Shown: positions 1-1,543 of the stretch, one piece after another
Numbering within the stretch: the stretch's first letter is position 1
How the letters are laid out: every line of letters begins with the position of its first letter
Assembly: GCF_003334255.1 (NCBI RefSeq)
Contig: NZ_QOWU01000155.1
Strand: one strand, 5' to 3'
DNA length: 1,543 nt
Origin: Escherichia coli
GTDB taxonomy: Bacteria; Pseudomonadota; Gammaproteobacteria; Enterobacterales; Enterobacteriaceae
Made by a program: the position numbers and the translations under genes
Notes under the pieces: generated by a model
Seen by the model: the letters and a program-made list of their open reading frames with translations, nothing else
Told to the model about the DNA's origin: nothing
Database searches by the model: none

Positions 1-62
1 AATCGGTGGAGCTGCATGACAAAGTCATCGGGCATTATCTGAACATAAAACACTATCAATAA
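1..62 (+). CDS. Possible 3' end of an upstream protein-coding gene (partial; ...SVELHDKVIGHYLNIKHYQ*)
   Basis: Frame 3 is the only + frame open from the window edge; it runs from nt 3 to a TAA at 60..62, while the other two + frames hit stops at 17..19 and 40..42. The stop lies 21 nt before the ORF1 start, an operon-like spacing. Only 19 codons are visible, so this is weakly supported. Confidence 0.25.
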   Translation, partial: SVELHDKVIGHYLNIKHYQ

Positions 63-83
63 GTTGGAGTCATTACCGTAGAT

Positions 84-479
84 ATGAAGGGAACGAAAAA
101 CGCCTTTGGTTTAGGTTCTGCGCCTAATGGACAAAAAATTGGCGCTGCATCCATTGGTATTGACAGGTCTAATGGTGGGATTCACGCGGCGGACGATACA
201 GGTGAAATTCCTGTCGACCTGATTCAAACTGACCACTGGTCAGCAGCGCCCCCCACATGGAAAGCCTCATCTAATGGCGCATTCTGCTCGCTGACAAGTT
301 GCTCAGCAATCGAGCGCGGTTATTCTGTTGCAAAAACAGGGGAACTGACACCTGTTGCCATTACAGCGGTCACCTTCCCGTTACTGATTGATGCTGCGGT
401 AAATGACAATACTATTCTTGGTTCTGATGAAACGATCAAACTGGATGGTAACGTCACTATCAGCGTTCAGTATTTATAA
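84..479 (+). CDS. Hypothetical protein, 131 aa; possibly fimbrial-subunit-like, but no signal peptide detected
   Basis: ORF from the six-frame track. The ATG at 84 is the first start after the in-frame TAA at 60..62. GGAG at 66..69 is a possible RBS, though the 14-nt spacer is long. The protein is rich in Gly/Ala/Ser/Thr/Asn, has two close cysteines (CSLTSC) and ends in an alternating-hydrophobic strand with a penultimate Tyr (VTISVQYL), loosely like the C-terminal strand of chaperone-usher pilins. The N-terminus (MKGTKNAFGLGSAPNGQK...) is not hydrophobic and does not look like a Sec signal peptide. Confidence 0.55.
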   Translation: MKGTKNAFGLGSAPNGQKIGAASIGIDRSNGGIHAADDTGEIPVDLIQTDHWSAAPPTWKASSNGAFCSLTSCSAIERGYSVAKTGELTPVAITAVTFPLLIDAAVNDNTILGSDETIKLDGNVTISVQYL

Positions 480-650
480 GAACTTGTAATACAGTTTTTA
501 TTTTTACGCATTAACCAGTTAGCTATAACTCGGACAGATTATGCCCTATGACATGGTCTGTCTTAATCAATCTCATCGCAAACAGTGCATAACATATATT
601 AACAATATGTTTCTGCGTTATTTATCATTATTACAGGAGTTTTAATTTAA
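480..650 (+). promoter_or_regulatory. AT-rich intergenic region upstream of the chaperone gene; candidate promoter and RBS
   Basis: 171-bp non-coding, visibly AT-rich spacer. RBS AGGAG at 635..639 sits 11 nt before the ATG at 651. A candidate sigma70-like promoter is TTAACA (599..604), an 18-nt spacer, then TATCAT (623..628), but such matches arise easily by chance in AT-rich DNA. A short inverted repeat ATATT-AAC-AATAT lies at 596..608. Confidence 0.3.
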
Positions 651-1325
651 ATGCTCAGACACATTACATTCACTGTATTTATAACAACATCAATGAATAC
701 CTTAGCCACAGGGATGGTTCCTGAAACATCAGTATTGCTGGTTGATGAAAAGCGTGGTGAAGCTAGTATTAATATTAAGAATACAGATGATCATCCTTCA
801 TTGCTTTACACCACCATTGTTGATTTGCCTGAAAGCAATAAATCAATTCGTTTAATCCCGACTCAGCCCGTTATTCGTGTTGAAGCCGGTCAAGTACAAC
901 AGGTTCGATTTTTACTTCAGGCGACTGTTCCTCTGCAATCAGAAGAGCTGAAACGCGTAACGTTCGAAGGTATTCCACCAAAAGATGACAAGAGCAGCAG
1001 AGTTACTGTTTCAATTCGTCAGGATCTACCTGTACTGATCCACCCGGCTTCCCTGCCGGAAGAGCGAGAGACCTGGAAATTCCTGGAATGGCGTAAAAAT
1101 GGCGACCAAATTGAGATTAGCAACCCCAGTAATTATGTCGTTCGTATGACCTTACAATTTAAAACGCTCCCTTCAGGAAAAACGGGGGCTATAAATAAGA
1201 CCTATTTTCTACCACACACCAGTACAACTACTGCATTAACAAACGCTACGGATACAAAAGTCGAGTTTTACCCAGCCAGCCGATATGGTTATCGCGGTAA
1301 TAAATATGTCACTGACTTAAAATAA
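651..1325 (+). CDS. Periplasmic pilus (fimbrial) assembly chaperone, PapD-like fold; divergent, possibly alternate (CS1/CFA-I-like) or archaic clade
   Basis: ORF from the track, 224 aa. A TAA at 648..650 sits immediately upstream in frame, so the start at 651 is unambiguous, and it has an AGGAG RBS. N-terminal signal peptide MLRHITFTVFITTSMNTLA. By-eye matches to PapD-family chaperone motifs: LIPTQPVIRVEAGQVQQVRFLL (cf. PapD ATPPVQRLEPGAKSMVRL), FEGIPPK (cf. REIPP), RVTVSIRQDLPVLIHPASLP (the alternating G1 donor strand, cf. LQIALQTKIKLFYRPAA) and ISNPSNYVV (cf. IENPTPYYV in the C-terminal domain). Size and two-domain layout fit the family. Confidence 0.75.
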   Translation: MLRHITFTVFITTSMNTLATGMVPETSVLLVDEKRGEASINIKNTDDHPSLLYTTIVDLPESNKSIRLIPTQPVIRVEAGQVQQVRFLLQATVPLQSEELKRVTFEGIPPKDDKSSRVTVSIRQDLPVLIHPASLPEERETWKFLEWRKNGDQIEISNPSNYVVRMTLQFKTLPSGKTGAINKTYFLPHTSTTTALTNATDTKVEFYPASRYGYRGNKYVTDLK

Positions 1326-1345
1326 CTTTGCCTGGAGCGACAAGG

Positions 1346-1471
1346 ATGTTAAAAAAAACGTTACTGGCCTACACCATTGGTTTTGCCTTTTCTCCCCCAG
1401 CCAATGCAGATGGTATAGAGATTGCCGCTGTTGATTTTGATCGGGAAACATTAAAATCACTAGGTGGGTGA
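1346..1471 (+). CDS. Short signal-peptide ORF (41 aa), probably the 5' end of the next pilus gene (usher or subunit), ended by an in-frame TGA; possible pseudogene or readthrough
   Basis: ATG at 1346 lies 20 nt after the chaperone stop, with GGAG at 1334..1337 as RBS (8-nt spacer). Translation is MLKKTLLAYTIGFAFSPPANA|DGIEIAAVDFDRETLKSLGG*, a canonical Sec signal peptide with an A-x-A cleavage site. TGA is at 1469..1471. The same frame continues open from 1472 to the window end (CCQLTDLVYDGVFEVLQWLLFLSA). This ORF is not on the supplied track; I translated it by hand. Confidence 0.4.
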   Translation: MLKKTLLAYTIGFAFSPPANADGIEIAAVDFDRETLKSLGG

Positions 1472-1543
1472 TGCTGCCAACTTACTGATTTAGTGTATGA
1501 TGGTGTTTTTGAGGTGCTCCAGTGGCTTCTGTTTCTATCAGCT

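Follow-up and report, generated by a model that had tools for sequence, protein, structure and literature searches.

The window, that is the whole stretch of 1543 bases analysed here, has IS1 sequences at both ends and, between them (77..1466), matches the gltF-yhcA-yhcD region of Escherichia coli with 99.9–100% identity. Matches to this unique locus cover 77..1466 only; 1..76 matches thousands of places per collection that are annotated as IS1 transposase, and the frame 3 translation of 3..62 (SVELHDKVIGHYLNIKHYQ*) is the end of insB. The two IS1 copies have the same orientation (+ strand); relative to the intact locus L001, they interrupt gltF after nt 362 and yhcD after nt 121, which leaves a 1.39-kb operon remnant, a pseudogene fragment flanked by direct IS1 copies. 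This exact IS1-bracketed arrangement is absent from all the complete E. coli genomes of the collection. Since both gltF and the usher gene are cut by IS1, regulation of the operon is vestigial in this window and the question of its control is moot there. The features of the window are listed in Table 1.

Table 1. Features of the window. Positions are those of the window; the corresponding MG1655 (NC_000913.3) position is 3,361,461 + window position x.
Feature	Position	Strand	Remarks
IS1 copy, right end (insB 3' end and terminal inverted repeat)	1..76	+	truncates gltF after nt 362
gltF 3' part, DUF1120 putative major subunit, β-class fimbria	77..479	+	annotated in intact loci L001 and L011
RNA hairpin after gltF, 12 bp, no U-tract	532..563	+	dG -15.1 kcal/mol
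Perfect 7-7-7 palindrome AACATAT-ATTAACA-ATATGTT	591..611		the 5-3-5 repeat reported earlier is its inner register
-35-like hexamer TTAACA, 5/6	599..604	+	
Conserved block, yhcA translation start	612..665	+	52/54 identical, E. coli vs E. albertii
-10-like hexamer TATCAT, 5/6, 18-nt spacer, no TG extension	623..628	+	
yhcA, periplasmic fimbrial chaperone, PapD_N domain	651..1325	+	
GGTAATAAATATGTCACT, PhoB ChIP-seq site inside yhcA	1296..1313		MG1655 3362763; PMC10294691
yhcD (usher), first 121 nt, cut by second IS1	1346..1466	+	L001 yhcD start 7270 = window 1346
Second IS1 copy, left end (inverted repeat and insA start)	1467..1543	+	frame 2 reads ...VASVSIS

gltF-yhcADEF has been treated as one chaperone–usher locus (PMC5216030; PMC8174762), in which the gltF product is described as a subunit (PMC5216030). 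This β-class locus is found in phylogroup A only and is considered cryptic, without a described fimbria (PMC5216030; PMC8174762). Insertions of the IS5 family recur in it, either after gltF with loss of yhcA or within yhcA (strain EC05 in L006 and strain CFS3292 in L023), and one has been reported in the gltF-yhcA spacer of laboratory-evolved clones (PMC8403718). IS5 was considered as an activator of the locus and rejected, because in natural strains the copies are found within yhcA or in its place, which points to disruption rather than activation.

The genes form part of an islet that lies between gltD and yhcG and has 40–47% G+C (29–35% in its spacers) vs 55–60% in gltBD. Of 5426 genomes, 1130 carry it; in the others that were examined it is missing altogether, gltD being then followed directly by yhcG or nanQ. 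A G+C content below that of the flanking core genes and a patchy strain distribution are both as expected of a horizontally acquired islet. The suggestion of the first-pass annotation that such AT-rich DNA is of the type bound by H-NS holds true at the level of the locus, an AT-rich patchy islet in which the PhoB site inside yhcA (MG1655 3362763), described as transcriptionally inert, lies within a region bound by H-NS according to Kahramanoglou et al. 2011 (PMC10294691 Table 1). It holds at that level only: no high-affinity H-NS motif (TCGATAAATT-like) was found in 480..650 with up to two mismatches, the sole match in the window being located in IS1, and nothing singles out 596..628 for H-NS within the AT-rich tract.

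Other repeats were seen around the islet. Palindromes of a 23-bp family (TTCGCCAGAC-N3-GTCTGGCGAA and variants) are found immediately after gltD, three times inside yhcG at 39-bp intervals and after yhcG (L001 5096, 11395, 11434, 11473 and 12235; L007 7788, 7827, 7866 and 8628; L009 7317), and copies coincide with the edges of the presence/absence polymorphisms that affect the islet and yhcG. Divergent β-class operons exist in other E. coli, one with a chaperone allele at 76% identity (L014/L015) at the same site beside gltD and another at 63% (L021) that adjoins nanR, which makes the locus a hotspot for allelic replacement.

The spacer between gltF and yhcA (480..650) is 171 bp long, with 30% G+C and 70% A+T. 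The first-pass annotation had noticed in it a 5-3-5 inverted repeat, ATATT-AAC-AATAT, overlapping the -35-like hexamer of a candidate promoter for the chaperone gene, and had read this arrangement as the usual geometry of a repressor or activator site. Its description of the DNA is accurate: the repeat is present at 596..608, both hexamers are where it had placed them with an 18-nt spacer (605..622) in between, and an independent consensus scan returned the same site with a 10/12 match. If anything, the repeat had been understated, since the real arms are 7 bp long and make up a 21-bp palindrome, with arms that are almost pure A/T and a dyad symmetry centred on the -35-like hexamer. Among the promoter-like sites of the window this 10/12 site scores best, and it has the right position and orientation for yhcA, 22 nt upstream of its ATG.

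Chance levels were estimated using dinucleotide-preserving shuffles of the 171-bp spacer. Repeats with 5-bp arms and a loop of at most 10 were observed four times vs 3.0 ± 2.1 in the shuffles. Perfect as the 7-7-7 palindrome is, at least one repeat with 7-bp arms was found in 16% of the shuffles, and 20 different perfect repeats with arms of 7 bp or more can be counted in the intact 13.4-kb locus, mostly within genes. Similarly, although TTAACA-18-TATCAT has the -35 and -10 elements expected of a sigma-70 promoter, a + strand match of at least 10/12 occurs in 10% of the shuffles, such a site accompanied by a repeat that overlaps it or lies at most 10 bp upstream occurs in 6.5%, and the whole window has three promoter-like sites vs 3.8 ± 2.3 expected. 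The palindrome and the hexamers are thus no more than chance produces in an AT-rich spacer, and the accompanying caveat that the signal might be fortuitous was right.

Signs of a cognate regulator were also sought. Elsewhere in the locus the palindrome is matched only once, with three mismatches and within chance expectation, there is no annotated regulator gene in the islet from gltD to yhcG, and no Rfam family matches anywhere in the window. A comparison by eye with consensus sequences for Fur, LexA, CRP, OmpR, sigma-32 and Nac/LysR gave no convincing match to the repeat, the Nac/LysR ATA-N9-TAT fitting it only trivially. Phase variation of the Dam/Lrp type was rejected since the spacer contains no GATC.

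Whether the repeat is conserved in orthologous loci had been put forward in the first-pass annotation as a check, its absence from related loci speaking against a regulatory site. Within E. coli such a comparison is uninformative, because the spacer is found in 1130 of 5426 complete genomes and is always at least 99% identical. Orthologous and related β-class loci were therefore gathered by protein search and contig look-ups. The 10 related loci comprise E. albertii (chaperone 83% identical), two alleles at 76%, further loci at 62–69% from Citrobacter, Kluyvera, Enterobacter and metagenomes, a paralogous locus of E. coli (63%) and Entomohabitans (44%). A scan of genome contigs with YhcA identified only three loci, of which two are probable contaminants; YhcA on contigs labelled as a Collinsella MAG (L003) and as Terrisporobacter mayombei (L004) is 99–100% identical to that of E. 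coli, and its presence there is probably due to assembly contamination. None of the 10 related loci has the palindrome between its subunit and chaperone genes, and none has there a + strand promoter-like site that reaches 9/12.

E. albertii is the only orthologue-bearing species close enough to align, and in it the repeat is lost, the outcome that the first-pass annotation had set down as counting against its own reading. TTAACA is replaced by TT-CTGG, with at most a 2/6 match at any allowed spacing, and the right arm ATATGTT by GAATGCT. What survives of the two half-sites is CAT...ATG with one outer pair, a remnant GCAT-N10-ATGC dyad whose outer pair has changed on both sides, from A-T to G-C; this two-sided change, a single event in a single comparison, is weak evidence. 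The sequence immediately downstream behaves differently, 612..665 being almost identical in the two species against an identity of 75% for gltF, 80% for yhcA and 52% for the upstream spacer. This block includes the A/U-rich leader, the -10-like hexamer, the Shine-Dalgarno AGGAG (635..639) and the first five codons of yhcA, beginning with the ATG at 651. Although TATCAT is conserved in E. albertii, it sits inside this block, and its conservation is therefore not specific evidence for a promoter. As judged from the alignment, the constraint visible near the repeat concerns the translation-start region only, not the palindrome or the -35 element. In both species the ribosome-binding site would be enclosed by a pairing that is possible between UCUG (612..615) and CAGA (656..659).

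Structural conservation in the spacer is seen in a different element. The hairpin at 532..563 has a z-score of -4.2, and none of 200 shuffles folds as well. In all 11 loci considered (this window, L005, L012, L014 and L016–L022), a comparably stable hairpin, unrelated in sequence in each case, follows the subunit stop codon within about 50 nt; the best stretch of 50 nt there has -17 to -23 kcal/mol, a value reached by 0–2% of shuffles. Most of these hairpins, including that at 532..563, have no U-tract, and the post-subunit hairpin is probably an intercistronic attenuator or a stabiliser of the message. In the available portion of the supplements of a 3'-end mapping preprint there is no entry for a 3' end at 33619xx–33621xx, and expression of the locus is very low. 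A + strand site classified as 'internal' is recorded inside gltF at MG1655 3361307, upstream of the part of gltF kept in the window; it stands in a supplementary table of that preprint (file 2; 10.1101/2020.07.18.207399) which may be a table of Rho-dependent sites.

As regards transcription, initiation from the candidate promoter would be expected at about 633..636, given that TATCAT ends at 628. It would thus fall on the Shine-Dalgarno (ACAGGAG) and leave a leader of about 16 nt, which is possible but unusual; the 18-nt spacer is suboptimal and an extended -10 (TG) is lacking. No entry for yhcA, gltF or spacer coordinates was found in the start-site and sigma-factor supplements consulted (Cappable-seq, ROSE, Shigella M90T and Cho 2014), the available text of which may be incomplete, and a coordinate-prefix search of main texts returned unrelated papers only. 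An equally good 10/12 promoter-like site is located 52 nt upstream of the gltF ATG, in the 559-bp gltD-gltF spacer that is the most AT-rich part of the locus (29–35% G+C). Published RNA-seq counts are about 350–640 for gltF and 38–54 for yhcA (PMC10294691). The stable hairpin found in 11 of 11 loci, the AT-richness of the gltD-gltF spacer, the promoter-like site upstream of gltF and this drop in counts all fit read-through from upstream of gltF. The yhcD counts (about 420) are above those of yhcA (about 40–50), which hints at initiation inside or after yhcA. In addition, genomic SELEX with RNA polymerase carrying RpoH, the heat-shock sigma factor, gave a weak peak (intensity 3.2) inside yhcA, at U00096.2 3360232 or window ~749, and yhcA is starred as a RegulonDB target of RpoH (PMC5493296).

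The account that we consider probable, albeit well short of certain, is that the palindrome and the hexamers are incidental to the AT-rich DNA between two genes of a cryptic operon bound by H-NS, and that yhcA is reached by read-through past the conserved hairpin. A spacer with 70% A+T, lying between gltF and yhcA of a horizontally acquired, H-NS-bound cryptic operon, would give rise to such features incidentally; they would represent no dedicated operator and at most a weak promoter confined to the E. coli lineage. Transcription of yhcA would normally originate in the long AT-rich region upstream of gltF, and the transcript would cross the hairpin at 532..563, where the subunit message would probably be lowered or stabilised relative to that of the chaperone and usher. 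What fits this account least well is that the candidate is the best promoter match of the window and is well placed, that only 10% of the shuffles give such a match and 6.5% one associated with a repeat, and that its -10 and a residual dyad are kept in E. albertii. The match and its 10% frequency in the shuffles also speak for a reading in which a genuine internal sigma-70 promoter of the E. coli lineage drives yhcADEF independently of gltF, with the palindrome being incidental. Such a promoter would probably be silenced by H-NS, in a region that has been flagged as H-NS-bound, and most shuffles do not deliver a + strand 10/12 site such as this one, which has an 18-nt spacer and precedes the ATG by 22 nt. 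We nevertheless find this unlikely, because neither E. albertii nor any other of the 10 related loci has the site, its spacer is suboptimal and without an extended -10, its start would lie on the Shine-Dalgarno with a leader of about 16 nt, yhcA RNA is about 10-fold below gltF RNA, and the start-site and sigma-factor supplements, in what may be incomplete text, have no entry for yhcA or gltF.

That a dimeric transcription factor represses or activates the candidate promoter with the palindrome as its operator, which was the original reading, has in its favour the perfect 7-bp arms centred on the -35 hexamer and, in E. albertii, the GCAT-N10-ATGC dyad with one outer pair altered on both sides. 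However, it is difficult to reconcile with a dyad at chance level whose arms are almost pure A/T, with the loss of the right arm and the -35 in E. albertii although their flanks are conserved, with the three mismatches of the only other match in the locus, and with the lack of an annotated regulator in the islet and of anything equivalent in related loci. An operator function is thus unsupported and appears very improbable, and the same holds for the narrower proposal that 591..611 is the operator of some regulator acting on an internal promoter of the E. coli lineage. Alternatively, the repeat could work in RNA, as a hairpin in the gltF-yhcA read-through transcript involved, for example, in processing or translational control about 40 nt upstream of the start codon. 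The minimum-energy structures computed for 585..660 and 420..680 do contain it as a 7-bp hairpin, a GC hairpin (ACCGA...TCGGT) lies comparably far from the Shine-Dalgarno in the 76% allele L014, and the one pair that differs in E. albertii does so on both sides. Nevertheless, the palindrome is worth just -2.7 to -3.2 kcal/mol in a segment with a z-score of -1.3, the same helix is not kept in the E. albertii fold, Rfam has no match and most related loci have no hairpin at that place, making a role in RNA scarcely more plausible than one as an operator. Incidental occurrence in an AT-rich intercistronic spacer accommodates the chance frequencies as well as the lack of conservation, and most likely the repeat and hexamers are ordinary, non-regulatory sequence.

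Had the regulatory reading been true, this would have been the first regulatory element described for the uncharacterised β-class (yhc) fimbriae of E. coli, and an operator here would mean that yhcADEF could be expressed independently of gltF once H-NS silencing is lifted. The case instead calls for caution: dyads of 5–7 bp and 10/12 promoter matches arise by chance in the 70% A+T spacers of H-NS-bound islets, and they should not count as operators unless conservation or a mapped start of transcription supports them. Two conserved elements that emerged in the course of the analysis are of more use, the post-subunit hairpin and the block at the yhcA translation start.

Many cryptic promoters are present in horizontally acquired, AT-rich DNA that is bound by H-NS, and spurious sigma-70-like sequences of this kind are a close parallel to the candidate site. 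They have been discussed for this type of DNA (PMC10294691). The likeness lies in an AT-rich patchy islet, a region published as bound by H-NS and a near-consensus pair of hexamers present in one lineage only; the difference is that cryptic sequences of this sort lie inside genes, whereas the site considered here is a predicted one in an intergenic spacer. Palindromic operators that overlap a -35 element and repress by promoter occlusion offer another resemblance. As in those, the dyad is centred on a -35-like hexamer, but here the arms are A/T-only, occur at chance frequency, are unconserved and come without a cognate regulator or a second site. The hairpin at 532..563, an element distinct from the repeat that had first drawn attention, has parallels of its own. 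In the pap, fim and K88/K99 operons, a stem-loop after the major subunit gene sets the ratio of subunit to assembly-protein message. Most of the β-class hairpins, that at 532..563 included, differ from these stem-loops in having no U-tract, but they share with them a stable fold shortly after the subunit stop codon, found in all 11 β-class loci, and the approximately 10-fold drop in RNA counts from gltF to yhcA is a further point of likeness.
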